A stretch of 64,000 bases of DNA, taken from positions 1,760,001 to 1,824,000 of the forward strand of contig OY969100.1 of assembly GCA_963697895.1 (NCBI GenBank), in the 5' to 3' direction. Position 1 is the stretch's first letter; each line of letters begins with the position of its first letter. The notes beneath the pieces are model-generated. The model was not told the DNA's origin. It searched no databases and was given only the letters and a program-made list of their open reading frames with translations. Made by a program: the position numbers and the translations under genes. Origin of the DNA: an uncultured Methanomicrobiales archaeon (GTDB lineage Archaea; Halobacteriota; Methanomicrobia; Methanomicrobiales; Methanospirillaceae). This document shows, piece by piece, positions 22,576-58,830 of the stretch.

Positions 22576-22584
22576 GGACCAACA

Positions 22585-29340: not shown

Positions 29341-29345
29341 ATCTT

Positions 29346-37540: not shown

Positions 37541-37547
37541 GGGCACC

Positions 37548-38198: not shown

Positions 38199-38818
38199 GG
38201 ATAGAAAACGGTTTTTACTTCGCGGTCACTAAACCTTTGGCGGGCAGAAAGAAATCTTTTGTAACAGAGGGGGTCTTCTTATCATCTATACAGGTAATTC
38301 CTTCCGGTCCCGTTCATCGGAGGTAGATGATATCGCCCTTTCCGGATCTAAATATTCTCCTTGGAATTTTGTGCCAGCAGATCCCCATGAGGCAGTTGAA
38401 TGTACTGCTGGTGCGATATCAGGATCATAGACCAGATTTAAGCCCGGTCCGCGAGTTTAGCGGAGATCGTTTTTTTTATATCCTCTTTCTTGCAGAATGG
38501 GAAAGATCCCCCCGATTCGGGGGATGAACCTTAATTTCCCATAAAAAAACACTTGGAAAGAATCTTCGTGATGGCGTGAATATGGCTCTTAAAGGCCGAA
38601 AATTGTGAAAAGCGATGAAAAGCCGGCTATTGAAAAACCCGTGCCATCTCCGGACGTCATGAAGAAAGTAAACCATATCAACTTTACTTGTATAAAAATC
38701 AAGAATAAAATAACAAAATTTTTCCCATAACCTGCCGAGAAGAATACGATACTCGTCACATCAAGGCCCTTATTCGGGGAGGTTTCAGCATATCGTGTCA
38801 TTTCCGCATAGATGTTCT

Positions 38819-39652
38819 ATGGGAAGAACAGAATCTGCACCAGGTTTCCTGTATGCACACGTGCTTTTCCTCCTCATGCTATTCTTCATTAGTGCCGCAC
38901 CGGGGGCCATGGCAACAACAACATCACTCCATATCCAGAAGATCGGCGTCGATGGTAAGACGATCCTTGCGGAAAAGACCGTGGATTACCGCTGGATGGA
39001 ACAAAATCTCCCGATTGAAGGGGATGGAACAGTCCATTATTATCACCAGGGCCCGATATTTGCCGATGATCCTGATCCGGCAGCGGAGGAACTCTTGCGA
39101 TGGAATCACCCGGAGGACCGGAATGTCCGGGAAAAGGATATGGGCGCCGTGAAGGGGACAAAACTACCGGATCTGACCGACCTGGTGGGGGGAATGAACC
39201 CGGGCGATACCGTCCGGGTGAAGGCGGATGACGGCTTTTCACGGACCTTTGCCTATGAAAATGTCTATAACCCTCCCCCGAGGCAGGGTCCGATGGTGAT
39301 CACCTGGTTCCGGGCGGATGATGGCTACGTTCCCAATTATACGACGGGTATGCGTCTGGTATTCTTTGCAGATAACGCCACCAACCCGTGGGGTATCCAC
39401 GCATTCGGAAACTGGGACTGGCACGAATCGGCGGCGACCGAATACTGGTATTACTATATCCAGGGGAACGAACGGTACCCGACCACGACCGGACTTTCTG
39501 TACAGTCGGTCTCGGAAATTACGGTCTACCAGGGGAATAATTCCGCAGGATCGGGTACTAATGCAACATCCGGGCCATCTCCCGGTCTCGAGGCACTTTT
39601 GATCGTCTGTGCGCTCGGGCTCGCCGGTATATTCCTTATGAGGAGTCGATAG
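38819..39652 (+). CDS. Exported type-A domain protein with a PGF-CTERM-like anchor
   Basis: Signal peptide; HYYHQGP..KDMGAVKGT..GGM..DGF..YWYYY..TTGLSV; C-terminal SPGL-TM-RSR. Confidence 0.8.
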   Translation: MGRTESAPGFLYAHVLFLLMLFFISAAPGAMATTTSLHIQKIGVDGKTILAEKTVDYRWMEQNLPIEGDGTVHYYHQGPIFADDPDPAAEELLRWNHPEDRNVREKDMGAVKGTKLPDLTDLVGGMNPGDTVRVKADDGFSRTFAYENVYNPPPRQGPMVITWFRADDGYVPNYTTGMRLVFFADNATNPWGIHAFGNWDWHESAATEYWYYYIQGNERYPTTTGLSVQSVSEITVYQGNNSAGSGTNATSGPSPGLEALLIVCALGLAGIFLMRSR

Positions 39653-39653
39653 C

Positions 39654-40518
39654 ATGTATCGCGAAAAAAAGTGTCTTTTCTGTGTCTGGTGTATTGTCAT
39701 CGTGCTGCTCGGGTGTGCCGGATGTCTGTTCATCCCTGTTTCGGCCGCCCCCACGTCCGAACTCCACATCCTCAAGCTCGCAGACAACGGGACGCGGATT
39801 TTGAATGAAACCACGGTCACCTGTCTATGGATGGAATCTCATCTCCCGGTATACGGGGACGGAAAGACGCACTACTACCACCAGGGGCCGGTCTTTGCCG
39901 AATCGAAGGAAGACCAGTGGGACCCGAATGAAACCACTAATTTCAAGGACATGGGTGCGGTGAAGGGAACGGCGGTCAAAGATCTCTGCGAACAGGTCGG
40001 AGGGATGGTCGCCGGCGATGAGGTGATGGTCAAGGCGGATGACGGCTACCACGTGGAATTCCCGTATGCAAATATCTATACCCCCGAGTCACGCCAGGGA
40101 GCCATCGCGGTCTGCTGGTTCAACGGAGAAGAATCGAGCTGTGGGTGAACGGCAGGGTACCGGCTACCCTCCTGATTATTATTCGGGCATGCGGATCGTC
40201 TTCTTTGCGGATAACACCACCAATGCGGGAGGACGGCACGTCTTCGGGAACGCGGACATGCGTGCGGTGATGCCCGCCGAATCGATACACCTGTTCGACA
40301 ACCTCTACCCCTCCACGAGTGGGTATACGGTGAAGTGGGTTGACGAGGTCCGCGTGTACCAGGGAGGATACCATGGCTCCGCCGATGCACTCCCGAAATC
40401 GTTCGCGGCGAAGACGAACGAATCGTATACCCCATCAGAAAAAAGCCCGTTATGGAGCATCTACGTCATAATCGCCCTCATATCCACGGCGTTTATCGCT
40501 TCCCGGAGGAGGAGATGA
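39654..40518 (+). CDS. Exported type-A domain protein with a C-terminal TM anchor (frameshift near 40138)
   Basis: ORFs 39654-40148 and 40039-40518 together make one complete domain; ends SPL-TM-RRRR. Confidence 0.75.
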
Positions 40519-41105
40519 TTCGGAGGCGCTTCAGGGTTGATCTTTTGGTTATCGCGGCCATCGTCATCCTGTCCGCATTGATCGCAGGATGTACAGGGAA
40601 CGGTACAGGGCCCCCATCTCAGACATCAGACCCCGCATTTGTGGACTGGCATCTCACGCTGAATGGTACCACAGGGAAAGTACTGACCCTGGAAGATCTG
40701 CGTGCCCTCCCGGCGGTCACGGGGCACGGGTATGCCGTTTCGACGACCGGAATCCGGTTTGGCCCCTATCTATGCACGGGAGTGGATCTTAGAGAACTCG
40801 TCTCCCTTGCGGGAGGCATGGAGCAGAACGACTCGGTCTGGGTATCCGCACCGGACGGGTACCTCTGGGTCTTCGATACCGAACAGCTCGAAGGGAGAGG
40901 GTTCATCACCATGAACGAATCCCTCCGGGAGATTCCCTCCCCTCCTCTCCGTATCATTCTCATGTATGAGCAGGATGGTAAGCCGCTTACGTACGATGAA
41001 GGTGGCCCGGCCCGGATCGCGATCGTGTCGGAGAAAAAAGGTATAGTTACCGAAGGGAGTGCCTGGGTCAAATGGGTCGATCGAATCGAGATTCACCGGA
41101 AATAA
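40515..41105 (+). CDS. Lipoprotein with a molybdopterin-oxidoreductase (sulfite oxidase/MsrP-like) domain
   Basis: IAGC lipobox; LTLEDLRALP, GVDLRELV, APDGY, YEQDGKPL..GGPARI, WVKWVDRIE. Confidence 0.82.
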   Translation: MIRRRFRVDLLVIAAIVILSALIAGCTGNGTGPPSQTSDPAFVDWHLTLNGTTGKVLTLEDLRALPAVTGHGYAVSTTGIRFGPYLCTGVDLRELVSLAGGMEQNDSVWVSAPDGYLWVFDTEQLEGRGFITMNESLREIPSPPLRIILMYEQDGKPLTYDEGGPARIAIVSEKKGIVTEGSAWVKWVDRIEIHRK

Positions 41106-42115
41106 CGGCAATAATCAGATATGGCTCCCTGCTCCTCTCCCTCATGATAGTCATGGGGATTGCGGGGTGCCTATCGCAGGGGGAAGAAAAAGTTCCCCTG
41201 AAAGTCTTTGCTGCGGGAAGTCTGTTACTTCCGTTCGATCAGGCCGAGCACGAGTTTGAGCAGCTACATCCGGACATCGATGTCCAGATCGAGGGGCATG
41301 GCAGCATTCAGGTGATCCGGCAGGTCACGGACCTCCATCGTCCGGGGGACATGGTGGCCGTTGCAGACGAATCCCTGATCCCCGATATGATGTTCCGGCA
41401 GATGGACGATTCGGCAGGCAATTACTCCGATTCTCTCATCCCGTTCGGAAGAAACGAGATGGTGATAGTCTACACCAATAAGAGCCGGTACGCTGACGAA
41501 ATAAATGGAAATAACTGGTTTCGGGTACTTTCCCGGCCCGATGTCCGGGTGGGTATCGCGAACCCGATGCTTGATGCGTCGGGGTACCGGGCGTTGATGG
41601 TTACGATGCTTGCCGAGACCGAGTACCGGAACAGTACCATATTCGACCGGGTCATCGGAGACCATTTCTCCCCGCCTCTCAATGTGACCCGGAATGGATC
41701 TGATGTCCGCATCACGCTGCCGGAAGTCATGAAACCCTCGGACGATCATGTCGCGGTACGGGACGGGAGCATCTATCTGCTCTCGCTCCTCGAGACCGGC
41801 GGCATCGATTATGCGTTCGAGTACCGGAGTGTCGCCGAGGGCAATGACCTCAGGTGGATCAGTCTCCCTCCTTCCATCAACCTGGGGTCCGAAGCATATG
41901 AAGATCAGTATCGGACGGTCGCCGTGACCCTCGGTTTCCGGCGTTTCAGCACGATCGGAAGCGAGAGGACAGGGAGGCCGATCGTCTACGCCATGAGCAT
42001 TCCCCACACCGCTTCCCATCCTGAGATGGCCCAGGCATTCGCCGATTATATCGTCAATGAATCAAAGAAAGAACGCATTGGATGGCCTGCACCGTTGGGA
42101 GGAAGCAGCGGATGA
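41072..42115 (+). CDS. wtpA: Tungstate/molybdate ABC substrate-binding lipoprotein (WtpA family); start uncertain
   Basis: IAGC lipobox, FAAGSL, GS..RQVTDL, NEMV..YT.KS.YADEIN..NW, D.SGYR, IDYAFEYRSVA. Confidence 0.88.
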   Translation: MGRSNRDSPEITAIIRYGSLLLSLMIVMGIAGCLSQGEEKVPLKVFAAGSLLLPFDQAEHEFEQLHPDIDVQIEGHGSIQVIRQVTDLHRPGDMVAVADESLIPDMMFRQMDDSAGNYSDSLIPFGRNEMVIVYTNKSRYADEINGNNWFRVLSRPDVRVGIANPMLDASGYRALMVTMLAETEYRNSTIFDRVIGDHFSPPLNVTRNGSDVRITLPEVMKPSDDHVAVRDGSIYLLSLLETGGIDYAFEYRSVAEGNDLRWISLPPSINLGSEAYEDQYRTVAVTLGFRRFSTIGSERTGRPIVYAMSIPHTASHPEMAQAFADYIVNESKKERIGWPAPLGGSSG

Positions 42116-42942
42116 CTGCCCGGTTTGGAATCCCCCTGCCGGGGCGTCGGGTCGAATGGAGCATGGTCGCATTCTGGGCGATCGGGGCAATCCTCATCGG
42201 CCTCATATCTCTGGCGATCCTGGTCATCGCCCTCCCCAATCTCGTGCGCCCGGTGCACCTCGCCGAAACGGCGGCCGACCCGCTCGTGATATCAGCCCTC
42301 CTGGTCACCATGGTTGCCGGGCTGAATGCCGTCCTGATCCTGATCCTAACCGGAACCCCGCTCTCGTACGCCCTGTCAAGAACAGAATTCCGCGGAAAGG
42401 GAGTGGTCGAGAGCATCATTGACATCCCGCTCATCCTTCCCCACACGGTCGCGGGGTTGATGGTATATCTCCTCTTCATGACCAGGGGGGTGATCGGTGC
42501 CCCCTTCGCGAGTATCGGGGTGGTCTTCGAAGACGCTTACCCGGGAATCGTTGCAGCCATGGTGTTTGTGGCGATCCCCTACTATGTCAACTCGGTGCGG
42601 GAAGGATTCGAGAAGGTCCCGGTTCACCTGGAAAATGTGGCAAGGACGCTCGGGGCATCCCGGTTCCGGGCATTCTGGCACGTCGCAGTGCCGCTTTCGT
42701 TCCGGCACATCCTCTACGGTTCCCTGCTCGCATGGGGGCGGGCGATCGGAGAATTTGCCGCGGTGATCATGATTGCGTACTTCCCGATCGTGATCTCCAC
42801 GCTTATTTATTACCGGTTCAGCACGGGTGGCATCGTAGAGGCGAGCAGCATCGCATTTATCATGATCCTCGTATGTGCCGCGATCTTCGTATTGTTCCGG
42901 ATTCTCACGAAAAAGAGAGGCATCCGTGATGATCGGGCTTGA
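42112..42942 (+). CDS. wtpB: Tungstate/molybdate ABC permease
   Basis: IDIPLILPHTVAG, ENVARTLGAS, WGRAIGEF. Confidence 0.88.
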   Translation: MTARFGIPLPGRRVEWSMVAFWAIGAILIGLISLAILVIALPNLVRPVHLAETAADPLVISALLVTMVAGLNAVLILILTGTPLSYALSRTEFRGKGVVESIIDIPLILPHTVAGLMVYLLFMTRGVIGAPFASIGVVFEDAYPGIVAAMVFVAIPYYVNSVREGFEKVPVHLENVARTLGASRFRAFWHVAVPLSFRHILYGSLLAWGRAIGEFAAVIMIAYFPIVISTLIYYRFSTGGIVEASSIAFIMILVCAAIFVLFRILTKKRGIRDDRA

Positions 42943-43993
42943 TAACGTCTCTTTGAAGATTGGATCCTTCTCGCTCAACCGGATATCGCTCGATATCCGG
43001 GACGGTGCCCATGTCTTCCTGATGGGACCATCGGGCGCCGGGAAAACCGTTGTACTGGAGACGATCGCCGGGCTCCACGTTCCCGAACAGGGAGCGGTGC
43101 TCATAGACGGGGTCGATTGCACCACCCTCCCCCCGGAAGAACGGAGAGTTGGGTTTGTCTATCAGGACTATTCGCTCTTTCCCCATTACACGGTAGCCCG
43201 GAATATTGCGTTCGGGATGCAGATGCGAGGAAAATCCCGGGATCACCAGGACCGGATGACCCGCGAACTGATCGACATGCTGGGCATCTCGCATCTCGCC
43301 GACCGGTACCCGCAGACATTGAGCGGCGGGGAGCAGCAACGGGTGGCGCTCGCCCGGGCACTCGCGATCGAGCCCCGGATACTCCTCCTCGATGAACCGT
43401 TTGCGGCGATCGACGCCCTGGCACGGGAAGAATGCATGGAAGGATTGCGGCAGGTGCACCGGAAAACCGACCTCACCATCCTCCAGGTAAGCCATTCCCG
43501 GGAAGAGGCATACACGCTCGGGGACGAGGTGATCCTGCTTGACCAGGGATCTGTCCTCCAGACAGGATCGACTACAGAGGTATTATCTCACCCGGTCAGC
43601 AGGAGAGCGGCAGCGATCGCCGGTTTTGAGAATATCTTCGAGGGAATCGCGGGCGATTCACAGGATGGCATTCTCGATGTTCACCTGAACGGGATCACAT
43701 TCCGGGGGTACGGACACATTCCTCAGGGAAACAGCGTGGTCGTCTGTATCCGTGCAGGTGCGTTCCGGTTTCTCTCTCCGGATGCCCGCGGGGAAAACAT
43801 CGTCCCGGGAGTCGTCAGTTCCCTGATCTATACCGATTACGAATGCAGGGTAACCCTCGAGGGGACTCCTTCGTTCAGGGCCTTTATACCCATACGGATA
43901 GCCAGGTCAGCCGATATCAGGGTTGGAGTGCCCATCCGGATATGTGTTGACCGGAACGAGGTCGTATTCCTCGATGCGGCGGTGCCGGTATGA
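42929..43993 (+). CDS. wtpC: Tungstate/molybdate ABC ATPase with a TOBE-like C-terminus
   Basis: GPSGAGKT, LSGGEQQR, LLLDEP. Confidence 0.88.
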   Translation: MIGLDNVSLKIGSFSLNRISLDIRDGAHVFLMGPSGAGKTVVLETIAGLHVPEQGAVLIDGVDCTTLPPEERRVGFVYQDYSLFPHYTVARNIAFGMQMRGKSRDHQDRMTRELIDMLGISHLADRYPQTLSGGEQQRVALARALAIEPRILLLDEPFAAIDALAREECMEGLRQVHRKTDLTILQVSHSREEAYTLGDEVILLDQGSVLQTGSTTEVLSHPVSRRAAAIAGFENIFEGIAGDSQDGILDVHLNGITFRGYGHIPQGNSVVVCIRAGAFRFLSPDARGENIVPGVVSSLIYTDYECRVTLEGTPSFRAFIPIRIARSADIRVGVPIRICVDRNEVVFLDAAVPV

Positions 43994-46900
43994 ACAGGAA
44001 CCGAGTCGTCCGTGGATTACTCACCTGCATTTTCCTGTCGCTCATCCTCGTTATCCCGCCGGGGACCGCGACATCGACGGAAGTACGAATCGTGAAATTC
44101 GCTTCCGACGGGTATACGATCCTCAACGAGACAACGGTTGATTTCCGCTGGATGGAACAGCACCTTCCGGTACAGGGAGACGGAAACACCCATTATTACC
44201 TCCAGGGCCCGGTCTTTGCGGATAACCCGGATGATCGCTGGAACCCCGGGGAAGATACGAATGTAAAAGAGAAGGACATGGGAGCCGTGAAGGGGACGAA
44301 TCTCAAAGACCTCTGCGACCTCGTGGGAGGGATGGCGCTGGACGACGAAATGGTCGTAAAGGCAACAGACGGGTTCAGCCGCACGTTCGCGTATGACAAT
44401 ATCTACTCTCCCCCGTCGCGACAGGGCCCGGTTATTCTCGCATGGTACCGGGCTGACACGGGGTATGTTCCCACATATGCGGAGGGCATGCGACTACTCT
44501 TCCTCGCCGATACTTCGGACAATCCATGGGGGATTCATGCCATAGGGGTCTGGGACTGGCATGAAAGTGCCGCGGAACGGTACTGGTATTACTATTATAA
44601 CGGCAATGAACGGTATCCGACCACGACCGGGCTTTCGGTACAGTCCGTGGGGGAACTCCAGATCTTCAGCCAGGAAGAACCCACCGGGGTCATCCATGTG
44701 ACATCCCGGCCCGATGGCGGCCGGATATATCTCGATGATGAAGATACCGGGGAACTGACCCCCGCGTCCGTCACCGGTGTCACGGTCGGGTCGCATTCCG
44801 TCCGCGTGGAGAAGGACGGGTACGAAGTGCCGGACGAGGCGTGGGTAGACGTCACATACAACCGGGTCTCAGAAGCATTTTTTGATCTGATGCAGATCCC
44901 GGCGGTCTCGTCTGATGGATCCGGGGATTCATCCGCTGAAGAGGAGGACACAAAGGGAAAGGAATCAGGACCATCAGGATCGGAACTGGGCTTTTTCGCG
45001 CAGAATTCCCTGCGGGGAACTATATCTCTTGCAGAAATCCCGGGAATGAACGGATCCTGGAAGGACGGGGTGGAGCGCCCGTTTACCATCCCCGGGCTTC
45101 CCGATCAGGGTCTTGCCTTTGGCCGGTTGTATGTCTTCACCGCGAACTGTTCGGATACCTCATCGGCGTTGAATGAGGATTCCCTGTTTATTCTGAATAT
45201 TTCGGGCAGATCGATCCGGCCGGATCGCGTATACCGCGACCAGGGAGCAGAGGGATCGATCAAAACCTTTGCCTATAACATAACCGGCATTACGGATCGG
45301 GATTCGGGTGCAGCACTCCGCATGGAATCCCCGCCGGGGAGCTTATGCACGGTGGAAGGAGTGGTCATGCTTGGAGCCGTGGAAAATGATACGGCACAGC
45401 GGGTATCGTACCGGGTAAATGAAGGAGCGGATCTCATTGCTTCATCTCCCGGGCAGCCCCTGATCGACGCGGGAACCACGGCCGAGTTCGATATGGATCC
45501 TTTTGGAGTACCGTATACCCAGGCAAATCTCACCTTCATCACCACCGGAATGATCGCTGATCCCGCACCACGGTTCCAGGTCCAGGTAAACGGGGAGACC
45601 ATCTCGGGGACCTTCCCCGCGTCGGCGGACCCGGTGCATATCGCCAGAGTTTCATTCGAACCCCCCCCGCCGGGATCTCCGGTGGTTACATCCATACAGG
45701 CATTGATCAATCAAACGAACGGGTTGTACGGGGAAACCCGGGTTGCGGTCTTTACATTCACCGCGGTGAATGCCTCAAATCTGACACAATCGGCCCCCTA
45801 TGAAAATAAATCCGCCGAATCGGAACAAAATCAACATCCCATAGCAACATCTCCTCCCGTCACCATCGGGGAATCCTTACAGTCACCATCTCCCCCAGCC
45901 CCCGCGAATATACACGAACCGCCGGGCACAGGTCCGATCCACTGGATTACAGATATTTTCGATGCAATTACTACATTTATTCTTACCCTGTTCGGAGAAC
46001 CGGTTCCGGCCATTGCAACCGGAACGTCGGCACCGAACCCGGAACCGGGCAATCAGAGTATAGCAGACACAACTGATGCATCTCAACCGGGAACCGGAGA
46101 TGAACTCCAGGGATATCCGGAGGTTAAGAATAATGAGTCAGCTGTTTCGTTCGACCCTGATGATGAACACTCCGGCGTTGACGAAAAAACGCAGGATAAT
46201 ACCCTGAGCGCCACAACCGGTACCCCGGTTTCCCATCACGGGGGAGTGTATATCACTTCGTATCCCGCAGATGTCGAGCTGCGCATCGATAACAAGGTGA
46301 TCACCCGTCATCTCCCGGCGGTTATCTACGGAATGAGAGAAGGGATCCATTCGATCGAGGTACGGTTGAAATCCGATGATAACCGCATCATCGGCTCACA
46401 GTCCTCACGGGTCTGGATTTACCCGGAAGCCATAACGACCGCTCACTTCGACCTGGTCAGACCCGATATAAAACAGCAGGTTCATGTCAGCACCCGTGAT
46501 GGAACCAATGTTTCATTCGCCCTGAACGGATATTACCCCCTCCAGCGCACGCCTGCAGATATCGAATTCACCGGGACAGACCCCTTCATATCCGTCACCT
46601 ACGATGGTTCCTATCTTTCCTATACACTCTCCGCGAGGGTCATCAATACCGGGGAAATGGTGATTCTTCCCGGAATGCCCGACCTGTACCGGCTCCCGGT
46701 CGAGTCCTCCCCTTCCGGTGCGGAGGTGATCGTGGACGGGATACGCACGGGATACCGGACACCGGCGGTTGTTCCAAACCTCTCTGCCGGACTGCACCGG
46801 ATCATCGTCTCCCTTCCCGGGTACGATCCGGGAGAGGGGGTGGTCTCCATCCCGGTGAATGACGAGCCGATCGTGAAAACGCCTCTCCGCTATACCCTTG

Positions 46901-47142
46901 AAACCTATCCCTGCGGTTCCCTGAGTATTGAAAGTACGCCCCCCCGGGGAACCATCTATCTCGACGGTATCCTGACCGGTGAGAAGACCCCGTATCTCTT
47001 TACCGGAATACCTCTCGGGATCCATGAAATCATGCTCCGTCGCAATGGAGAAGACCGGATGATCGATGTGGTCGTAAAACCAGATGAGATTCAGCGGTAT
47101 GTCGTCGCGTTCAGGGAGAACGGGACAGAGGATTCCGTATGA
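43990..47142 (+). CDS. Exported multidomain protein: type-A domain, PEGA, DUF3344-like, linker, PEGA repeats
   Basis: Signal peptide; type-A motifs; VTSRPDGGRIYLD and VESSPSGAEVIVDG PEGA signatures; RLYV..YRDQG..NEGADL. Confidence 0.78.
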   Translation: MNRNRVVRGLLTCIFLSLILVIPPGTATSTEVRIVKFASDGYTILNETTVDFRWMEQHLPVQGDGNTHYYLQGPVFADNPDDRWNPGEDTNVKEKDMGAVKGTNLKDLCDLVGGMALDDEMVVKATDGFSRTFAYDNIYSPPSRQGPVILAWYRADTGYVPTYAEGMRLLFLADTSDNPWGIHAIGVWDWHESAAERYWYYYYNGNERYPTTTGLSVQSVGELQIFSQEEPTGVIHVTSRPDGGRIYLDDEDTGELTPASVTGVTVGSHSVRVEKDGYEVPDEAWVDVTYNRVSEAFFDLMQIPAVSSDGSGDSSAEEEDTKGKESGPSGSELGFFAQNSLRGTISLAEIPGMNGSWKDGVERPFTIPGLPDQGLAFGRLYVFTANCSDTSSALNEDSLFILNISGRSIRPDRVYRDQGAEGSIKTFAYNITGITDRDSGAALRMESPPGSLCTVEGVVMLGAVENDTAQRVSYRVNEGADLIASSPGQPLIDAGTTAEFDMDPFGVPYTQANLTFITTGMIADPAPRFQVQVNGETISGTFPASADPVHIARVSFEPPPPGSPVVTSIQALINQTNGLYGETRVAVFTFTAVNASNLTQSAPYENKSAESEQNQHPIATSPPVTIGESLQSPSPPAPANIHEPPGTGPIHWITDIFDAITTFILTLFGEPVPAIATGTSAPNPEPGNQSIADTTDASQPGTGDELQGYPEVKNNESAVSFDPDDEHSGVDEKTQDNTLSATTGTPVSHHGGVYITSYPADVELRIDNKVITRHLPAVIYGMREGIHSIEVRLKSDDNRIIGSQSSRVWIYPEAITTAHFDLVRPDIKQQVHVSTRDGTNVSFALNGYYPLQRTPADIEFTGTDPFISVTYDGSYLSYTLSARVINTGEMVILPGMPDLYRLPVESSPSGAEVIVDGIRTGYRTPAVVPNLSAGLHRIIVSLPGYDPGEGVVSIPVNDEPIVKTPLRYTLETYPCGSLSIESTPPRGTIYLDGILTGEKTPYLFTGIPLGIHEIMLRRNGEDRMIDVVVKPDEIQRYVVAFRENGTEDSV

Positions 47143-48446: not shown

Positions 48447-48606
48447 ATTATTTCGAATTGAAAAGCACCAGAGCCCGCAATCATGAAGAGAGACCTGTTC
48501 ACATTAACCGGGTAAACTTAACTTTTTCCTATAACCATCGGGAATACTAACCTTTGTGCATTGACGGACCTGGCTCCCATCAGGTCTTCGGACAGGTGAT
48601 TCAAGC

Positions 48607-51600
48607 ATGAAAACGATACCGGCAATCATTACTCTCAGTGTTTCCCTATTTTTCATGGCAGCACTCTTCATCGTGCCTGTACTGGCAGCAGCGACCACAT
48701 CGGTCCAGATTATCAAGTATGCAGACGATGGATCGACGATTCTGAATCAGACCGCGGTCGATTTTCAGTGGATGGAGACCCATTTACCGGTCTATGGGGA
48801 CGGGGTCACCCATTACTATCACCAGGGACCGGTCTTTAACGACAGTATCCCTGACAAATGGAACCCGGAAGAGAACGATCCTGCCATCCTGACGAAAGAT
48901 TACGGGGCACTAAAAGGAACCGATTTAAAAGAGCCTGTGTGATCTGGTCGGGGGTATGCAGGCGGATGATTACAATGTCACGCTTAAGGCATCGGATGGA
49001 TTCTCCAAGGCCTTTGCCTATTCGAGTGTCTATAATCCACCTGCCCGGGCAGGGCCGATCGTCCTCACCTGGTACAGGGCCGATCAGGGGTATGTCAATG
49101 GTTCGTATACAACCGGAATACGGAACGTGATGTTTGCAGACACCTCTACAAATCCCTGGGGGGACCATGTCTTCGGACTCTGGGACATGCACGAGTCCTA
49201 TCCCGAAGCGTTCTGGTATTATTACCAGCCGGGGCTCCCGAGTACAACCGGCCTCTCGGTCCAGAATATTGCCTATGTCATCATTTACAGTTCAATTTCG
49301 CCACCGGAGACCCCATCCGCGAACTTCTCCGCCCTTCCTGTATCGGGAACGATCCCGCTTACCGTTCAGTTTACAGACAGACTCCCTGAATGATCCGACG
49401 AGCTGGGCCTGGGACTTCGACGATGACGGTGATGTCGACAGCATCGCCCAAAGCCCGGTATTCACCTATGCCGTGCCCGGGTCCTATTCGGTGAATCTTA
49501 CCGTCATGAATGCCGCCGGGAGCGATTCCGATGTTAAGATAGGGTATATCAATGCATTTGCAGCAACCAACACAACCCCAGCCATATCGTTCGTTCCCGC
49601 ATCCGCGTCCGTGCTCCCGGGAGGTTCAAAGGAGTATGAGATCAGGGTGGACAGCCTCCCGAAAGGTCTTGCGGGTTATGATCTCGTCTGCACCGTCTCA
49701 AACACCAGTGTCGCCGAGATCATCTCGGTCTCCTATCCGTCCTGGGCCGGTCTCCGGAATACCACGAATTACTCTGCCTGGTCCGTCCGGTTAAGCGGAG
49801 TGGATACCGACCGTCAGATTCAGCCGGGGGCAGTAAATGTGATCCTGGCAAACATGACTCTCAAAGGAGACATGGCCGGAGTAACGCCGATCGTCATCAG
49901 CAATGTGCACATGGACGCGGATGGGGGAGATGCGATAAATTCCTCGACGAATAACGGACAACTCATCGTCCAATCACTAACTCCGGCACCACCGGTAGCA
50001 AACTTCACCGGAACACCGAGATCAGGGAATGCTCCGTTGTTGGTCCAGTTCACCGACACTTCAACCGGTTCTCCGACGTCATGGGCCTGGGACTTCAACA
50101 ACGATGGGGTGATCGACAACACGAGCAGGAATCCGATGTATACCTACCTGAGTCCCGGAACGTATTCGGTGAACCTCACGGTCACGAATGCGGGCGGAAG
50201 CGACAGCGAGCTGAAGATGAATTATATTTCGGTGCAGTCACCGCCTCCGGCACCACCGGTTGCGAACTTCACGGGAACACCAAGGTCGGGGAATGCTCCG
50301 TTGTCTGTCCAGTTCATCGATACCTCGACTGGTTCCCCGACGAGCTGGGCCTGGGACTTCAACAACGACGGAGTGATCGACAACACCTCGCGAAATCCGA
50401 TGTATACCTACCTCAGTCCCAGAACGTATTCGGTGAACCTCACGGTCACAAATGCCGGCGGAAGTGACAGCGAACTGAAGACGAATTACGTCTCGGTGCA
50501 TTCACCGCCTCCGGCACCACCGGTTGCGAACTTCACGGGGACACCGAGATCAGGGAATGCTCCGTTGTCTGTCCAGTTCACCGACACTTCAACCGGTTCT
50601 CCGACGTCATGGGCCTGGGACTTCAACAACGATGGGGTGATCGACAACACCTCGCGGAACCCGATCTATACCTACCTAAGTCCGGGAACGTATTCGGTGA
50701 ACCTCACGGTCACGAATGCGGGCGGAAGCGACAACGAGCTGAAGATGAATTACGTCTCGGTGCATTCACCGCCTCCGGCACCACCGGTTGCGAACTTCAC
50801 GGGAACACCAAGGTTGGGGAATGCTCCGTTGTCTGTCCAGTTCATCGATACCTCGACTGGTTCCCCGACGAGCTGGGCCTGGGACTTCAACAATGACGGG
50901 GTAATCGACAACACCTCGCGGAACCCGATCTATACTTATCCGAGTCCGGGAACGTATTCAGTGAACCTTACGGTCACGAATGAAGGGGGAAGCGACAGCG
51001 AGCTGAAGACGAATTACATCACGGTGCAGGCACCGCCACCAGCTCCGCCGGTTGCGAACTTTTCGGGGACACCTCGATCCGGGAATGCCCCGTTGTCTGT
51101 CCAGTTCACTGACACTTCATCCGGTTCACCAACCAGCTGGGCCTGGGACTTCAACAACGACGGAGTGATCGACAACACCTCGCGGAATCCGATGTATACC
51201 TATCCGAATCCGGGAACGTATTCGGTGAACCTTACGGTCACGAATGCGGGCGGAAGCGACAGCGAGCTGAAGACGAATTACATCACGGTTTTGACACCAC
51301 CTCCCGCACCACCGGTCGCGAACTTCACGGGGACACCGAGATCGGGGAATGCTCCGTTGTCGGTGCAGTTCACTGACACTTCATCCGGAAGTCCGACGTC
51401 ATGGGCCTGGGACTTCAACAACGACGGAGTGATCGATAACACCTCGCGGAACCCGAGTTATACCTATCCGAATCCCGGAACGTATTCGGTGAACCTCACC
51501 GTCACAAATGCTGGTGGAAGCGACAGCGAGCTGAAGACGAATTATATCTCGGTGCAGGCAACACCCTCGGGAACAGCATCCGTCAGCGGTTGGGTCTCTA

Positions 51601-51959
51601 CAGGATCGGATATCGGATCTGTGTACGTCCCGGAGATCAGGGTCCGGTTCGCAACGAGCGTTTCCGATCTTTCCAACCCGGATCACTATTGGGAAGCAAC
51701 GACCGACCAGCGGGGAACGTATTCGATATCCGGCCTGCCGTCCGGAGTGACGCTCTATGCAAAGGCCCTGTCTCCTGTCGCTCGTCCGAATGCATATCTG
51801 GAACGGCCAATCCAGTACGAGGTGAATTCCGGCCGCCTGATCACCTGTCAAAACATTTCCAGCACCCCGCAGGTACTGCCGATCGCATTAGATGGCAAAA
51901 TACAGGTCAACTGGGTTCTGACTCAAAACCCCAGTGCCTTTGGTCTGCTCCTCTTATAA
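48607..51959 (+). CDS. Exported protein: type-A domain, PKD, cohesin-like, six PKD, C-terminal Ig-like (frameshifts near 48933 and 49380)
   Basis: Three overlapping ORFs join into one protein whose N-domain is near-identical to that of the 52102 protein; AGGTGA RBS. Confidence 0.78.
49981..51558 (+). repeat. Six tandem 264-bp PKD-domain repeats
   Basis: ANF codons at 49998, 50262, 50526, 50790, 51054, 51318; SWAWDFNNDG in each. Confidence 0.95.
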
Positions 51960-52101
51960 TTTTTTTCTCCCTTAAAGAGAATTAATATTGTTAAGTTAAC
52001 TAATACAATAATTAAATAGTAATGTTGATATCTGTTTCAAACGACTTCGATAATACCAGTCAAAAATTTTCTATCGAGCATTTCGACTGAGGTGAATTCA
52101 T

Positions 52102-55100
52102 TTGAGACAATTTCCCGTAAAATATACTTTGTATGCCGTGTTCATCCTCGCGGCAGTACTGCTTCTCGCGCCCGTAATGGCGGCGACGACTTCAGTACAT
52201 ATTGTAAAGTATGCGAATGACAATACGACCATCCTGAACGAAACAACGGTTGATTTCGCGTGGATGGAGGCAAATCTGCCGGTGCTTGGTGATGGTGTAA
52301 CACATTATTACCTGCAAGGGCCGGTGATGAATGAAAGCATCACTGATAAGTGGAACCCCGAGGAGAACGATCCCGCCATTCTCACAAAGGATTTCGGGGC
52401 GGTAAAAGGAACCGATCTTAAAGATCTTTGTGACTTGGTCGGTGGTATGCAGCCGGATGACTACAACGTCACGCTTAAAGCGCCGGATGGATTTAAACAG
52501 GCCTTTGCCTATTCAAGCATTTATAATACTCCCGCACGAGCAGGGCCGATCGTACTTACCTGGTACAGAGCAGATCAGGGTTATGTAAACGGTTCATATT
52601 CCGCGGGTATCCGGAACGTGATGTTTGCTGACACATCAACAAATCCCTGGGGGGATCATGTCTTCGGACTCTGGGATATGCATGAGGTCTATCCGGAAGC
52701 GTTCTGGTACTATTACCAGCCTGGCTTCCCGAGTGCAACCGGGCTCTCCGTTCAGAATATCGATCGAGTTCTTATCTATACCAACGACCCGGCGCCCCTC
52801 AACGCAAACTTCACGGCAAACGTAACCACCGGCCAAGTCCCGTTGGCCGTCCAGTTTAACGACACATCTACCGGTGGTCCGACAACATGGGCCTGGGATT
52901 TCTTTAATGACGGGACCATCGACAGCAACGCCCGTAACCCGGCATACACCTTTCCCGTTCCCGGTAATTACACGGTAAATCTGACGGTAACGAACGCAGA
53001 TGGAAGAGACAGTGAGGTGAAAACGAATTTCATTCATGTAACTGCCATCCCGGCATTCAATGTAATATTTAACGGCACCGTTACCCTAACCCCGGGTGAG
53101 ACATTTACTCAACTGGCGTACAATACCGGGACAAACTATACGGTCAACCGGACCACCCCGCTCGGGGCATTGAACGCTGCGGCAACGACCGCCGGATTCA
53201 CATATTCTGTAACTGATAAAAAATGGTCTGCAGATCAGGTCCTTCTTCTTGATAACGTCAGTGCCTATACGAAAGCTACCGGTAAATGGTATGCATATGT
53301 GAATGACGTATACAAAGATGGTGTCGGGAATCATCCAAATGGGTTGAACGTGATCGAGCTCTTCGATAACGATAGGGTTGAATTCTACTTTACAACCACA
53401 AGTGTCTCCGATCCTACTAATCTCACTGCAGTAAAGGAGCTGGCGACAACTGCAGTGAAGACCATTGCGGACATCCCTACCGTTCCTTCAATGGATGTCG
53501 TTTTTAACGGTACCGTGACCCTTACCCCGGGTGAAACGTTTACTCAACTGGCGTACAATACCGGGACAAACTATACGGTTAACCGGACCACCCCGCTCGG
53601 GGCATTGAACGCTGCGGCAACGACCGCCGGATTCACATATTCTGTAACTGATAAAAAATGGTCTGCAGATCAGGTCCTTCTTCTTGATAACGTCAGTGCC
53701 TATACGAAAGCTACCGGTAAATGGTATGCATATGTGAATGACGTATACAAAGATGGTGTCGGGAATCATCCAAATGGGTTGAACGTGATCGAGCTCTCCG
53801 ATAACGATAGGGTTGAATTCTACTTTACAACCACAAGTGTCTCCGATCCTACTAATCTCACTGCAGTAAAGGAGCTGGCGACAGCTGCAGTGAAGACCAT
53901 TGCGGACATCCCTACCGTTCCTTCAATGGATGTCGTATTTAACGGTACCGTGACCCTCACCCCGGGTGAAACATTCACCCAGCTGGCGTACAACTCCGGG
54001 ACAAACTATACGATCAACCGGACCACGCCGCTCGGTGCATTGAACGCTGCGGCAACGATAGCCGGATTCACGTACGATGTAACGGATAAGCGATGGTCTT
54101 CCGATCAGGTGCTCCTGCTCGATAACGTGTCTGTCTACAACAAATCCGCAGGCAAGTGGTATGCGTACGTGAACGGTGTATTCAAGGACGGGTACCAGAA
54201 CCATCCTGATGGCCTGAACGTTTTCGCGCTTGCGAACAATGATCAGGTAAATTACTTCTTCTCGATCAACGGTACCAATCTCACCGCCCCGACCGATGCT
54301 ATCGCAGCGGTGAAGATCAAAGTAAATATCGCAGGTTCAACTCCATCCGACTGGTCCCTCTCCCTCAGGGGTGCACGGACAGACACCATAACCAAGTCAT
54401 TCTTTGAACAGGCACTTGCGTGCCCAAGTTCAGGCCACCAGGTGAACTGGACCGATACCGACGGAAGTGTGTGGAGTGGTGTACCCCTCTGGCTTCTCGT
54501 GGGCGTGATCGACGACAACCCCGATGTCGGGCCCGATCACTTTAATTTCAATGATTCACTCGCCGCACAGGGATATTCGGTAAAGATAACCGCCGGCGAT
54601 GGCTTCAACACCACACTCGCGAGCGCCGACATCGCCCGCAATAACGGGTATATCGTTGCAAATAAACTGAACGGGAGCGATCTCCCGCTTCTTACTCCGG
54701 GAGGAAAGCGGTGCTGGCCGCTCTACCTGAAAGGTTCGGCGGTATTCGGCGGGCAGCAGGTCGGAAACATCACCTCAATCGAGCTCACGGGAATGCCACA
54801 GCCATCAGCTGGCTGGACACTAACGATGGAGGGTGACGTTACTGATGTGATCACCCAGGAATACTTCGAACAGGCGATCGCCTGCCACCACAACGTGACC
54901 TATACCGATGCAGGGGGGAGCGTCTGGACTGGTGTTGCCCTCTGGGACCTGGTCGGTTCCGTGGATGACATCGAGACGACCAGCCACTGGACATTTAATG
55001 ATACCCGGGCAAATGTAACCGGGTATACCGTCAGGGTTATCGCCGGCGATGGATTCAATAAAACATTTGACAGCCTCAACGTGAGCCATAATAACGGTTT

Positions 55101-57699
55101 TATTGTTGCAAATACTCTGAACGGATCAGCTCTCAGCGGTACAAACGGGCATTTGAAGCTCGTCGGACCGGCGACCACCTCCGGTCAACAGCGGGTCGGC
55201 AATATCACGACAATCCGCCTGGAAGGCCTCCCATCGTATCCTGCAGGGGCATACAGTCTCTCCCTGAAAGGAAAGATCAGCGATATCATCCCCGAACCGG
55301 AACTCGAGGCTTGGATTGCGGCGAATACTGCGACATACACTGACAGCAACGGGAATGAATACTCCGGTATTCCCCTTTGGTATTTGCTTGGCTGGGTGGA
55401 TGATCGGATTCCTGCCGGTCCAAATGGGTTCAACGAGGCGACCGCGGCAGCCGGTTACAAGGTGATTGTGAAAGCGGGTGATGGCTACTCGAAGGAGTTC
55501 TCGAGCACGACGATCGGGAAAAACAACGATCTGATCGTCGCCAATATGCTGAACGGGACTGCTCTTCCGAGCGACGGAAGTCATCCGCCATGGCCGCTCC
55601 GGCTGGTTGGGCCAGGGGCGACCGGAAGCAACAGCGTCGGGAATATCGTGGAGATTGACCTGACCGATTTCCAGACCGTGCAGTACCCGCGATTCCCCTC
55701 CATATCATCAAGTACGGTCCTGACGGAACCACCATCATCAATCAGACGAACGTAACCTATCAGTGGATGGAAATAAACCTCGCCGTCATCGGGGACGGGG
55801 TAACTGCGTATAAGTTCGAGGGTCTCACGCTCAACTCCTCGAACCTGTGGGACCCCGAGGAGACCTATCCGGGGGGGTTCAAGATCTCGAACGTGGTGAA
55901 AGGAACCCGTGTCCATGACTTGGCTGAACTCGTTGGCGGGATGGGATCGGGAACAACGATCACCTTCGTCGCAAGCGATGGCTTCGAGACAACACTCCCT
56001 TACTCGTCAATTTATACCAACCCGGCGATCCAGTCCCGGCAGGGAGATGCCGTCCTTGCTTGGTGGGGCGATGGGCAGTACGTGCCCGGTTATGCGGATG
56101 GGATGCGCCTCTTCTTCATGCCGTCTGACCATATCTATGGCCAGTGGGACATGCACGAGACACTGCCATCCCAGTACTGGCGTTATAATTACCAGGATGG
56201 TGTCCAGTACCCGTCCTGTGCGGGGCTTTCTGCAAAGTACATCACCGCCATCAAGGTTTATTCCTCTCCGGAATCAGACTGGACCCTGAATCTGGACGGG
56301 CGGGATATCGGCGGGATCAATTATACCGTGAGCAAGCCATACTTCGAGGAGGCACTGGCCTGCCAGTTCGAGTCGAACCACAGTGCAACCTTCACCGATA
56401 GCAGCGGACGGGTATGGGAAGGGATGCCGCTCTGGTTCCTCTGCGGGTTCGTCGATGATGCCGACATGCATTCTGCTAACTCCTACAACGACACAAAGGC
56501 GCTCGCGGGTTACAATATCACCATCACCGGAACGGATGGGTACAACTATACCTTCGATAGCAGGGATACGATCCGGAGTACCAACTATATCGTCGCGAAC
56601 ACCCTGAATGGCACGCATATCAACGGATCGGATTCCAGCTGGCCGCTGCGGCTTGTCGGGCAGAATGTGACCGGCGGAATGGTGGTCAAGAAGATCGCGT
56701 CGATCAAACTGACTCCCCAGGCATCTCTTCCACCCGAAACCCCGACCATATCGGTCGTTCCTGCCAGCCAGTCGTTCCCGGTGGGGACGAGCAGGGAATA
56801 CCAGATCGTGATGAATTCCATCCCGCCGGGTCTCGCGGGGTATGATCTGGTCGTGACCTGTTCCAATGCAAGTGTTGCGGAGATCCTCTCCATATCGTAT
56901 CCTTCATGGGCCGGGTTGAGCAATAACACCGTGATTACCCCGTCATCATTAAAACTGAGTGCGGTGGATACAAACCGGCAGGTCCAGCTGAATGCAACGA
57001 ACGTGGTCCTCGCAAATGTTACCGTAAAGGGTAATGCGGCAGGGACGACCTCCATTGTTATCACGAAGGTGCATATGGATACCGATGGCGGGGGGATTAT
57101 CACCCCTGATATCGTAAACGGACGGGCAATTGTATTCAGCCCCCTGAATGCGGATTTCAGCGGGACCCCGAGGACCGGCATGGCGTCGAGGAATGTATCG
57201 CTCGACGTGAATTTCACGGATCTTACGACCGGGTCGCCGAATGCGACGGCATGGCACTGGGACTTCGGGACGCTCGGGAACGGCAACACATCGACGGCGC
57301 ATAATCCAAAGGCCCACTACTACGGGGTAGTAGGGAGTGTATCCGACTCCAGCCTCGTGAGACTCTACGGGAACCATACCGTGACTCTCATCGCGAGCAA
57401 TGCGTATAACCAGTCGACGAAGGTCCGGACGGATTATATCTATATCACGCCACTGCTGAAACCGTTCCCCGGGTACACTTTACTGCCGACAGATATGAAC
57501 AGCGACTGGATGATGGAGGACATCAACGGCAACGGAAACCTCGATTATGACGACGTGGTCGCGTATTACCAGAACATGCAGTGGATCCGGGACCAGGTCG
57601 ATGTCGGTGTCGAACCTGTACGACTACAACAACAACGGTCGCATCGATTACGATGATGTCGTGGTTCTCTACTGGATCATCCTGGACAGTCATCCATGA
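52102..57699 (+). CDS. Giant surface protein (about 1865 aa): type-A, PKD, 3x DUF4430-like, 3x type-B, type-A, type-B, cohesin-like, PKD, dockerin-like (frameshifts near 55680 and 57618)
   Basis: TTG start after GAGGTGA; shifted frames restore LHIIKYGPDGTTIINQTNVTYQWME and YDYNNNGRIDYDDVV. Confidence 0.78.
53068..54330 (+). repeat. Three tandem 435-bp repeats (DUF4430-like domains)
   Basis: NGTVTLTPGE at 53071, 53506, 53941; the first two copies are nearly identical in DNA. Confidence 0.92.
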
Positions 57700-57942
57700 T
57701 CCTTGAGAGTGAGTCTGAGACTGCCGGACATAAACCGGCATCATTTTTTTTTTGAAAACGAATAAGGGCAATCGGATCCTATTGAATGAGTGGAAATGAA
57801 TCACATACCCAAGTCATTCCGGATAAGCAGTATCTCACCCGTAAAAAGGACAGCCCTGATCCCCCATTCGGTGATCTCAGTTGAATTGTTCTGAATCCTT
57901 TTCCCGTCCGGATGGACGGGTTATCATATCTCGCGAGGGACC

Positions 57943-58830
57943 ATGAAACACGCAATCCTCATAATTATCCTGATATCAGCCGCAGCATTCGCGTGCAGCT
58001 GCTCCGCTGCACCGACTCTGTCATTTGATCCCGTTGAACTGACCCTGGACCAGGGATCATCGGGAACCGTATCGATTTTTCTCTCGGAAGCACCGGATGG
58101 CCTTGCCGGCTATGACCTTGTGGTCACCCTGGCAAACCCCGGTACTGCCCGGATCACCGCAGTCTCGTACCCGTCCTGGGCAGGACTGAGTAACAGTTCG
58201 GGTGTTCCCGGAGAGCAGGTCTTCATGAGCGGTGTCGACATCAACCGGCAGGTGCAGGCGGGAGCGACGGGTATCCAGCTCGCGACCATTACCCTTGAGG
58301 GAGGAACAACGGGCACATCCACGCTGACAGTCTCGGATATCCATATGGATGCCGACGGAGGGGCGGGGATTGTTCCGTTAGTGAATACCGGGACGGTCGT
58401 CGTGGGTTCGGGGGTACTCCGGTCACCTGGACAACGGTCCCGACGACGGCCCCCGTGACGACGACGGTAACCGCGGCGTCTTCGACCGGCTCATCGTCTT
58501 CTGGTAATGGGGGCAGTTCCGGCGGAGATGGAGCCGGAACCTCCTCTGCGGAGACCACTTCCCCCGTGACGGGTGTCACTACCGTGTCACTCACACCGCT
58601 CGAAACCCATGTTGAAATCCCGGTCAGCACGCCATCCGCCGAACCTTCTCCGGCAACGGCTGTGACCGGAGACGACGACTGGAGCGAGCGCACCCCCGGC
58701 AACCCTGCCCAAGTTACCGTCTGTGCCGTCAGCCCTTGCCGGAATACCGCTCCTCTGGCTGGGAATCGTGATTATTCTGATCATAATCAGCATTGTCATC
58801 CTGGTTCTCGCCATAACCAAGAGGATCTAA
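57943..58830 (+). CDS. Membrane-anchored cohesin-like protein with an S/T-rich stalk (compensating frameshifts near 58412 and 58668)
   Basis: Signal peptide; GLAGYDL..VSYPSWAGL..HMDADGG; C-terminal TM LLWLGIVIILIIISIVILVLAITKRI in the starting frame. Confidence 0.72.

Follow-up and report, generated by a model that had tools for sequence, protein, structure and literature searches.

An array of cysteine-less sulfite-oxidase-fold surface modules encoded with wtpABC in an uncultured Methanomicrobiales archaeon: a candidate apparatus for tungsten and molybdenum acquisition

The locus and its gene content

The DNA analysed here, referred to as the window, is a stretch of 64,000 nucleotides (nt) from an uncultured Methanomicrobiales archaeon, positions 1760001-1824000 of a genome that consists of a single contig of 2.09 Mb with an estimated completeness of 93.85%. 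The closest relatives of the window proteins carry the labels Methanoregulaceae, Methanolinea or Methanomicrobiales. At window positions 38795-58830 the stretch holds a row of 11 genes, all on the + strand, built around wtpABC, which encodes an importer of tungstate and molybdate (Table 1). The other genes encode surface proteins that repeatedly use domains related to sulfite oxidase (SUOX), in three forms named type A, type B and the lipoprotein form. An initial annotation made from the letters alone had described about 11 co-oriented genes for exported or anchored proteins; signal peptides, lipoboxes and C-terminal membrane anchors are indeed readable in the translations, with the lipobox IAGC in both the lipoprotein and WtpA. 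The observation of a module array joined to wtpABC is confirmed, and the interpretation then attached to it is partly supported.

The genes are tightly packed. One nucleotide separates the first from the second type-A gene (39652/39654), ATGA start/stop overlaps lie at 40515-40518, 43990-43993 and 47139-47142, and genes also overlap at the lipoprotein/wtpA, wtpA/wtpB and wtpB/wtpC junctions. Overlaps are therefore present at the junctions where wtpABC had been said to be coupled to the lipoprotein gene, the 43990 gene and the phosphoesterase gene, and the start-stop overlaps from 38795 to 48446 are consistent with translational coupling. The lipoprotein gene likely begins with the ATG at 40515, where it overlaps the stop codon of the gene before it. 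The ATGA overlap of the 43990 gene is with the stop of wtpC, and orthologs of this gene were located in relatives. The two open reading frames (ORFs) starting at 52102 and 55767 correspond to a single gene in relatives, and bacterial relatives have one ORF of 1826 or 2318 aa with the same architecture.

Table 1. Features of the locus, in window coordinates.
Feature	Position	Strand	Basis
Small type-A protein: signal peptide, one Cys-less SUOX-like domain, C-terminal PGF-like anchor	38795..39652	+	Translation, model, homologs
Second small type-A protein with membrane anchor; frame-broken at ~40130	39654..40518	+	Three-frame translation, tblastn
lipoSUOX, lipoprotein with a single predicted SUOX-fold domain, no Mo-ligating Cys	40452..41105	+	PF00174 E 1.3e-10
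wtpA, tungstate/molybdate-binding lipoprotein, distinct SUOX-linked subfamily	41072..42115	+	TIGR03730 315 bits
wtpB, permease	42082..42942	+	NF040839 252 bits; Pfam BPD_transp_1
wtpC, ATPase	42875..43993	+	NF040840 301 bits; Pfam ABC_tran
1050-aa surface protein: type A, PEGA, DUF3344, PEGA repeats	43990..47142	+	Pfam, tblastn
Secreted purple-acid-phosphatase-like metallophosphoesterase	47139..48446	+	Metallophos 2e-16, Pur_ac_phosph_N 7e-8
Surface protein: type A, PKD, cohesin-like (49578-49976), six PKD, C-terminal beta domain; frame-broken at 48933 and ~49375	48607..51959	+	
Giant surface protein, N-terminal part: type A, PKD, three DUF4430-like (53053-54315), three type B (54385-55707); gene frame-broken at ~55680 and 57617	52102..57699	+	
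Giant surface protein, rest: type A (55698-56264), type B (56292-56756), cohesin-like (56742-57140), PKD-like, dockerin-like (57498-57696)			
Membrane-anchored cohesin protein: signal peptide, cohesin fold, Ser/Thr linker, C-terminal transmembrane helix; frame-broken at ~58409 and ~58670	57943..58830	+	

Modules were counted by tblastn with one copy of each against the entire genome. The search returned six type-A, four type-B and one lipoprotein SUOX copy, every one of them inside the locus, together with three cohesin-like modules in the locus and a fourth elsewhere in the genome, so that the earlier count of six type-A, four type-B and one canonical copy was exact. Pfam confirms PKD and PEGA, the domains proposed as stalks, as well as DUF3344, Metallophos, Pur_ac_phosph_N and Oxidored_molyb, the last in the lipoprotein and in the type-B modules of two large ORFs. 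Outside the locus, the best canonical Oxidored_molyb match of the genome lies at genome 1576343-1576753 (- strand, E 3e-30, open frame of 241 aa) and may belong to a genuine SUOX-family enzyme. Three repeats of 135 aa (rep135) in the giant protein had been overlooked. Members of this repeat family match DUF4430 at E<=0.05 in 14 of 33 cases (best E 0.001), with an ESM lead of 0.89, and the repeats are probably divergent DUF4430 domains, a family which we take to be tied by InterPro to the C-terminal domain of transcobalamin. Alignment of rep135 against PDB profiles gave no meaningful match, and Pfam at permissive E on the cohesin-like, dockerin-like, type-A and rep135 segments returned no Cohesin, Dockerin or Oxidored_molyb.

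A sulfite-oxidase fold without the molybdenum cysteine

Type A has no Pfam or NCBIfam match, and its relationship was sought through structure and profile comparison. At E<=1e-3 the family takes in 655 clusters of 50% identity, in which type A usually stands at the N terminus of a long protein with several domains, and 588 homologs were found for the first small type-A protein, those aligned having a PG[FL] motif, a transmembrane segment and a basic C-terminal tail. Some type-A members are named 'argininosuccinate synthase' in public records, which looks like propagated misannotation. The AlphaFold model of type A has a predicted local distance difference test (pLDDT) score of 71, and its first Foldseek match is PruR (E 1.8e-3). 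In VIA-align, two PruR chains reach Z 9.7, with SoxC, chicken sulfite oxidase and SorA at 9.3-9.0; every one of the top 32 rows is of the SUOX fold and the next unrelated fold follows at Z 4.4. Across four PruR entries the Z values were 9.7, 9.1 and 8.7. Profile comparison by hhalign joins type A to the lipoprotein family with 97.2% probability (E 3e-11, 75 columns), and the Pfam family Oxidored_molyb matches the lipoprotein over profile positions 11-162 of 169 (PF00174, E 1.3e-10) and type B with E 8.2e-9. The proposal that these divergent domains adopt the sulfite-oxidase fold is upheld, and on the modelled structure type A is a SUOX/PruR-like fold.

The residue that holds molybdenum in the enzymes is not retained. 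No invariant Cys is present in the alignments of 34 type-A and 28 lipoprotein sequences, and where SorT and SoxC have their Mo-ligating Cys, the lipoprotein has Val or Ala, followed by an invariant Ser-Thr. A conserved twin-arginine (Tat) signal is also absent; the lipoprotein of the window has RR (RRRF), which is missing from its relatives, and a reading of the lipoprotein as a Tat-exported enzyme was rejected because the motif is not kept. By Pfam the neighbours of the SUOX-like modules are PKD, PEGA and DUF3344 only, with no dimerisation or haem domain. What type A does conserve is a large set of invariant His, Tyr, Trp, Asp and Glu residues (HYYHQGP, WDWHES), and DG[YF] and W.KW motifs recur in the type-A and lipoprotein alignments, these being read from the family alignments and not from a residue-level alignment with PruR. 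Since they have neither a conserved Cys nor a conserved twin-arginine signal, the modules are predicted to be cofactor-less SUOX-fold domains that are exported unfolded and act as binders rather than enzymes.

Linkage to one WtpA subfamily

A survey of 201 sampled genomes of the same class, made by profile searches with adjacency compared by eye from coordinates, links the lipoprotein firmly to the importer. The lipoprotein profile matches in 76 of the 201 genomes, one copy each, in 25 of 36 genera. Scores of the WtpA profile are bimodal, 375-573 bits in one class against 299 or less in the other. For 74 of the 76 lipoprotein genes a high-class WtpA gene comes next in the same orientation, either overlapping or no more than about 45 nt away; of the two exceptions, one has the genes on separate contigs (G115) and the other has a contig that ends at the gene (G092). 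None of the low-class WtpA genes among those listed adjoins a lipoprotein gene. Of the 201 genomes, 81 have type A, among them all 76 with the lipoprotein. A second sample of 62 loci with type-A relatives has WtpA directly after the lipoprotein in 38 of 40 lipoprotein-bearing loci, and the phosphoesterase accompanies 28 of the 51 loci with an archaeal label and 6 of the 11 with a bacterial one; these loci were picked as best matches to the wtpA-proximal type-A gene and many are cut by contig ends, so the class-level count is the fairer one. Both counts bear out the claim that homologs are linked to transporters of tungsten and molybdenum (W/Mo). The linkage of a SUOX lipoprotein to one WtpA subfamily is a strong tie to W/Mo.

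The importer itself departs from the characterised ones in detail. WtpA passes TIGR03730 (315 bits, cut-off 242.75) and scores 296 with NF003196, under its cut-off of 355; for WtpB and WtpC the Wtp models are the best but the scores fall under the equivalog cut-offs (252<340 for NF040839 and 301<440 for NF040840). WtpA aligns over its full length with the solved WtpA/ModA chains MA_0280, MJ1186 and AF_0094 (E 1e-64 to 1e-90). All 28 sequences compared keep the Asp of the NPxxDxxGYR motif (D168). The Glu at R+3 (RSxE) of the Methanocaldococcus jannaschii, Methanosarcina acetivorans and Archaeoglobus fulgidus chains, a column which we take from the A. fulgidus numbering to hold the ligand Glu, is an invariant Ser233 in the linked subfamily. 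An invariant Glu250 (FEY.SVA) is found instead at a position where the three solved chains have Ile, so that this signature falls within WtpA residues 230-256. Tungsten is described as coordinated octahedrally with one Asp and one Glu ligand (PMC10221389, PMC4139814). Glu250 may be a relocated carboxylate ligand.

The genome has W/Mo enzymes to supply, as molybdopterin oxidoreductases are encoded at three loci. It also encodes a second binder, a 659-aa lipoprotein at genome 1273200-1275176 that fuses a TupA-like part (TTTS motif) with a WtpA-like part and is not beside any SUOX module. Some 4 kb downstream of this fusion there are WtpB- and WtpC-like genes, and several relatives have open frames of 640-670 aa that resemble it.

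The whole cassette, with type-A genes at 53-61% identity, is also present in metagenome-assembled genomes (MAGs) labelled Syntrophomonas, Syntrophomonadaceae, Pelotomaculum, Firmicutes, Dehalococcoidales and other bacteria (loci L034, L036, L039, L043, L046, L047, L049, L050, L056, L060 and L062). This level of identity and the occurrence of the complete cassette in bacterial MAGs suggest that it has been transferred between syntrophs and methanogens; mis-binning of some contigs is also possible.

Cofactor riboswitches in the bacterial relatives

Among nine bacterial loci scanned with Rfam, three contain RF01055, the riboswitch of the molybdenum cofactor (Moco) or tungsten cofactor (Tuco). With two further loci extended for the scan, RF01055 heads the homologous operon in four of five bacterial genomes (G001, G002, G004 and G005); in the fifth, G003, the contig apparently ends short of the operon head, as estimated from coordinates. 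Each of these genomes has 7-12 RF01055 elements. The order in G001 and G002 is a riboswitch (tandem in part), a type-A/rep135 gene, the giant gene of 1826 or 2318 aa, the phosphoesterase, a further type-A gene and the lipoprotein, the last two as far as the fetched stretch reaches, with WtpABC following the lipoprotein in overlapping loci. The G004 operon starts with a shorter gene (rep135, type B, SLH) and runs through WtpABC to a final type-A gene. The one element whose alignment was inspected has no P3 stem. Regulski 2008 (PMC2408646) connects P3-less forms of RF01055 to the tungsten cofactor and shows that the motif works as an OFF switch.

Two bacterial loci place riboswitches before other importers. 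In the Pelotomaculum locus L049 (12208-17826) the genes behind the riboswitch encode a type-A/PKD/rep135/type-B protein of 1658 aa, an SLH protein and a purple-acid-phosphatase-like phosphoesterase, and after these come genes for ECF ATPases, CbiQ/EcfT and a NusG_II protein. In the Firmicute locus L036 (3188-10373) tandem riboswitches precede SLH/Big_5 proteins and a FecCD/ABC/Peripla_BP_2 importer. A separate observation concerns L078, where a c-di-GMP-II riboswitch (RF01786, 57.7 bits) lies directly before a Moco riboswitch (338-423 and 489-608), and this mixed tandem heads a bacterial type-A surface-protein operon.

Cohesin, dockerin-like and phosphoesterase components

The cohesin fold inferred earlier is confirmed, and an ESM lead of 0.93 agrees with it. 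The 171-aa ORF at 57943 gives a model with pLDDT 90.8; its best Foldseek match is the non-cellulosomal cohesin 2xdh of A. fulgidus (E 9.6e-9, TM 0.78), followed by type I cohesins, and of the 141 matches at E<=1e-3 the rows listed are almost all cohesins. Homologs of this protein with an intact frame are 260-300 aa long, and in them a Ser/Thr linker joins the cohesin to a transmembrane helix. When the cohesin-like alignment was compared with PDB profiles, only the Gly/Ser linkers of single-chain variable fragments were matched. As for the dockerin-like domain, the tail of the giant protein has two DxNxNGxxDYDDVV Ca-loop repeats, split by a frame break, while Pfam finds weak EF-hand matches only (E 0.0016-0.038) and no Dockerin_1. 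Because the cohesin fold is confirmed by modelling and the Ca-loop repeat is duplicated in the giant protein, a cohesin-anchored assembly of the surface proteins is plausible.

The phosphoesterase combines Metallophos with the N-terminal domain of purple acid phosphatases (PAPs). PAPs carry a Tyr ligand within a GDxxY motif; the protein of the locus has GDMVND there, so this Tyr is not seen, and the GNHE and AHVH motifs are present.

Integrity of the reading frames

Four accessory genes are frame-broken at seven places (~40130, 48933, ~49375, ~55680, 57617, ~58409 and ~58670), a feature absent from the initial annotation. In the second small type-A gene the tblastn match is split into 39747-40166 and 40150-40365. 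Intact are wtpABC, the lipoprotein gene, the first type-A gene and the genes of the 1050-aa protein and the phosphoesterase. Public-metagenome contigs of relatives have compensating indels at 48933 (1 nt fewer), at 55679/55681 and at 58409 (an extra G); at 57617 contigs from three runs have one, and one of these is otherwise identical to the window over 168 bases. The contig comparison covers no sequence at the 49375 break, and the public sequencing runs listed include no RNA run and contain at most 0.19 of the sampled words. An intact 296-aa homolog of the cohesin protein (94% identical) maps to the window in three frames. Elsewhere in the genome, a molybdopterin-oxidoreductase gene at 260879-262151 (- strand) has PF00384 in three pieces over two frames, and a split in such a core gene suggests indel errors in the assembly. 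Given the compensating indels of relatives, the split core gene and the estimated completeness, assembly indels are at least as likely as real decay.

Genomic surroundings

Directly upstream of the cluster, at window 31791-38198, lie ppx (- strand), pstS, a fused pstC-pstA, pstB and phoU. Three other stretches of the window (10428-14564, 21112-30275 and 61725-62897) have an unusual density of sulfur-trafficking genes, including four paralogs of class-V aminotransferase/cysteine desulfurase, one of them fused to a phosphoadenosine-phosphosulfate-reductase domain, and genes for ThiI, a SepSecS-like protein, a pyridoxal-phosphate enzyme of the Cys/Met type and a PALP enzyme.

Comparison with known systems

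The only characterised SUOX-fold proteins without the Cys are the PruR proteins, periplasmic proteins of Agrobacterium, Vibrio and Klebsiella that bind pterins; they have a Pro-Trp motif at the former Cys position and an Asn/Tyr/Trp triad that stacks the pterin (PMC11194511). The modules of the locus resemble PruR (7kos, 7kou, 7kom, 7kp2 and 7rkb) in being a secreted, Cys-less SUOX fold, with 126-128 of 134-138 residues aligned. They differ from it in several ways. Identity is 9-18%, at the Cys column the lipoprotein has V/A-S-T and not the PW of PruR, the partner is WtpA rather than a DcpA-type c-di-GMP enzyme, the modules are multiplied on giant anchored proteins, and the hosts are archaea and Firmicutes, not Proteobacteria. 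With sulfite oxidase, SorA/SorT, SoxC and YedY/MsrP they share the fold of the Moco-binding domain, but unlike these enzymes they lack the Mo-Cys, any domain for dimerisation or haem, and a conserved Tat signal, and they occur in 11 copies on surface proteins.

As in other WtpABC/ModA importers (Pyrococcus furiosus WtpA, A. fulgidus 2onk, MA_0280 3k6u), the gene of the binder is followed by those of a permease and an ATPase. The difference lies in the separate high-scoring WtpA subfamily preceded by the SUOX lipoprotein, in the Ser233/Glu250 swap and in WtpB and WtpC scores under the cut-offs; the literature found describes no accessory surface proteins for characterised Wtp systems. The cohesin fold and the dockerin-like Ca-loop repeats recall cohesin-dockerin systems (the cellulosome, A. 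fulgidus 2xdh), from which the locus is distinguished by the absence of carbohydrate-active enzymes and of Pfam matches to either Cohesin or Dockerin_1.

Anchored binders that feed an ABC or TonB importer are known for other nutrients, namely the Isd/NEAT haem relay of Gram-positives and BtuG in the capture of B12 by Bacteroides; these are analogies, their folds and ligands being unrelated. To our knowledge no such surface relay has been described for W/Mo. The bacterial homologs behind single or tandem RF01055, the inspected one lacking P3, are comparable with the Tuco regulons of Eubacterium limosum, where operons of tupABC, WOR1 and 'fetABC' lie behind such riboswitches and the genes listed behind them are WOR1, tupABC, two 'iron' ABC transporters and focA (PMC11725836). 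The regulons of PMC2408646 and PMC11725836 are described with genes for transport, cofactor synthesis and 'unknown function', and a text search of PMC11725836 gave no hit for 'sulfite oxidase', 'molybdopterin-binding' or 'surface'; the archaeal locus differs further in having no riboswitch. The literature searched on Wtp, tungstate, the SUOX fold and Tuco ties no SUOX-fold surface proteins to Wtp, although supplements may list such genes. The locus is a real, conserved accessory module of a known importer type and apparently one that has not been described.

Proposed function and alternative explanations

It is likely that the apparatus serves W/Mo acquisition. WtpABC of the distinct subfamily and a dedicated extracellular accessory apparatus would be encoded together, the latter consisting of Sec-exported, membrane- or surface-anchored proteins that carry Cys-less SUOX modules in three forms. 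PKD, PEGA and DUF4430-like domains would act as spacers, and the cohesin and dockerin-like modules could hold the proteins together. The SUOX modules would capture scarce W/Mo outside the cell, most likely as the metal on a pyranopterin-type ligand or its breakdown product, which the phosphoesterase may process. The lipoprotein module beside WtpA would then help to load tungstate or molybdate onto WtpA for import. The version favoured here, in which the SUOX modules bind metal-pterin W/Mo species and feed WtpA, is held tentatively and at somewhat less than an even chance; the binding of a ligand, its identity and the hand-off to WtpA are all inferred. A metal-pterin ligand is preferred only slightly to the bare oxyanion, since the Cys-less SUOX relatives bind pterins, the phosphoesterase is conserved and bacterial variants use ECF or FecCD importers; the DUF4430-like repeats are also counted toward a pterin-type or complexed ligand. 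A more far-reaching scheme, possible and rather doubtful, is a salvage relay for the W/Mo pyranopterin cofactor, or its metal, from dead cells. In such a relay, arrays of apo SUOX-fold and DUF4430-like domains would capture the released cofactor and the phosphoesterase would strip a phosphate or dinucleotide, after which the metal would be imported, or the pterin complex itself in the ECF- or FecCD-linked bacterial variants. A shortage of the cofactor would turn the relay on, and methanogens and the bacteria living in syntrophy with them would have exchanged it by horizontal transfer.

Several observations weigh against capture of a metal-pterin by this apparatus. The imported species is probably the bare oxyanion, with no pterin step required, because WtpA keeps the Asp and matches tungstate binders and WtpB belongs to the oxyanion permease family. 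Presence is patchy, in 76 of 201 genomes and in 1 of 41 of one genus, and the system is dispensable. The type-A model is only moderate (pLDDT 71), the Foldseek E-values are marginal (best 1.8e-3), and the DUF4430 and dockerin assignments are weak. With four accessory genes frame-broken, the full apparatus may not be functional in this assembly. An Rfam scan of window 30000-60000 at E<=1 found no riboswitch, and a comparison of the 9-mers ahead of the first type-A gene showed no common operator, the most widely shared word being present in 7 of 37 loci. Expression that follows W/Mo, an expectation attached to the first interpretation, is thus indicated for the bacterial homologs behind RF01055 and not for the window, and W/Mo regulation in the archaeon would be argued from homology, as neither riboswitch nor shared upstream word was found.

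The modules might instead bind tungstate, molybdate or their thio-forms directly, as a surface concentrator or exchanger that feeds WtpA without any pterin, with the phosphoesterase in a side role such as an oxyanion-binding binuclear site or the release of phosphate. Such direct binding is possible, if on the unlikely side. It fits the oxyanion-type importer with its conserved Asp ligand, the invariant HYYHQGP and WDWHES residues of type A could line an anion site, and the WtpA linkage and the riboswitches apply to it equally. It leaves unexplained the conserved phosphoesterase and the bacterial variants with ECF or FecCD/Peripla_BP_2 importers, and we know of no SUOX-fold protein that binds free oxyanions without a pterin cofactor. 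A role as PruR-like pterin sensors or uptake proteins, with metal-free pterin as signal or nutrient and a regulatory link to WtpA, is quite improbable. PruR chains rank near the top of the structural comparison (Z 9.7, 9.1 and 8.7), PruR binds pterins and has no Mo-Cys (PMC11194511), and the c-di-GMP-II riboswitch precedes the Moco riboswitch in one bacterial operon (L078); yet the window has no DcpA-type GGDEF/EAL or kinase partner, the consistent partner is an ABC binding protein (74 of 76 genomes), the multiplication to as many as 11 modules in a locus, carried by giant anchored proteins, is unlike a soluble sensor, and the riboswitch senses the metal cofactor rather than free pterin (PMC2408646).

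Low probability is likewise given to extracytoplasmic redox enzymes that would hold a pyranopterin or another cofactor on a non-Cys residue and convert, for example, thiotungstate to an importable form. The SUOX fold, the invariant Ser-Thr beside the former Cys position of the lipoprotein, and, in L049, a small SUOX-fold protein that has FMN_bind and NapH-like Fe-S membrane proteins as neighbours would agree with catalysis. Export of a cofactor-loaded enzyme would call for a twin-arginine signal, which is not conserved; moreover type A and the lipoprotein have no Cys ligand, the window has no electron-transfer partner, and tandem arrays of 4-9 modules are atypical for enzymes. That the proteins are ordinary envelope or adhesion proteins, or part of a phosphate-starvation regulon, and merely stand beside wtpABC is very improbable and largely refuted. 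Surface proteins of archaea commonly carry PKD, PEGA and cohesin modules, pstSCAB-phoU and ppx lie directly upstream and a secreted phosphatase is within the cluster. Against chance proximity stand the adjacency to WtpA in 74 of 76 genomes, the position of bacterial homologs behind Moco/tungsten-cofactor riboswitches and the confinement of all SUOX-like modules of the genome to this locus. The phosphate-regulon form of the idea was ruled out, because only 3 of the 62 related loci (L005, L037 and L045) have a pst operon nearby.

Implications

Methanogens that use H2 or formate and their syntrophic partners need W/Mo enzymes such as formylmethanofuran and formate dehydrogenases, and these metals are scarce and complexed by sulfide. 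How microbes compete for them is little understood beyond the Mod, Tup and Wtp pumps. If W/Mo acquisition is the true role of the apparatus, it would add a new level to the ways in which trace metals are acquired, linked to one WtpA subfamily and present in 76 of 201 genomes of the class and in syntrophic Firmicutes. It may explain how methanogens obtain scarce tungsten, with a bearing on methane production, anaerobic digestion and the function of a large group of Cys-less SUOX-fold proteins. It would also make testable whether microbes salvage metal-pterin cofactor from their surroundings.

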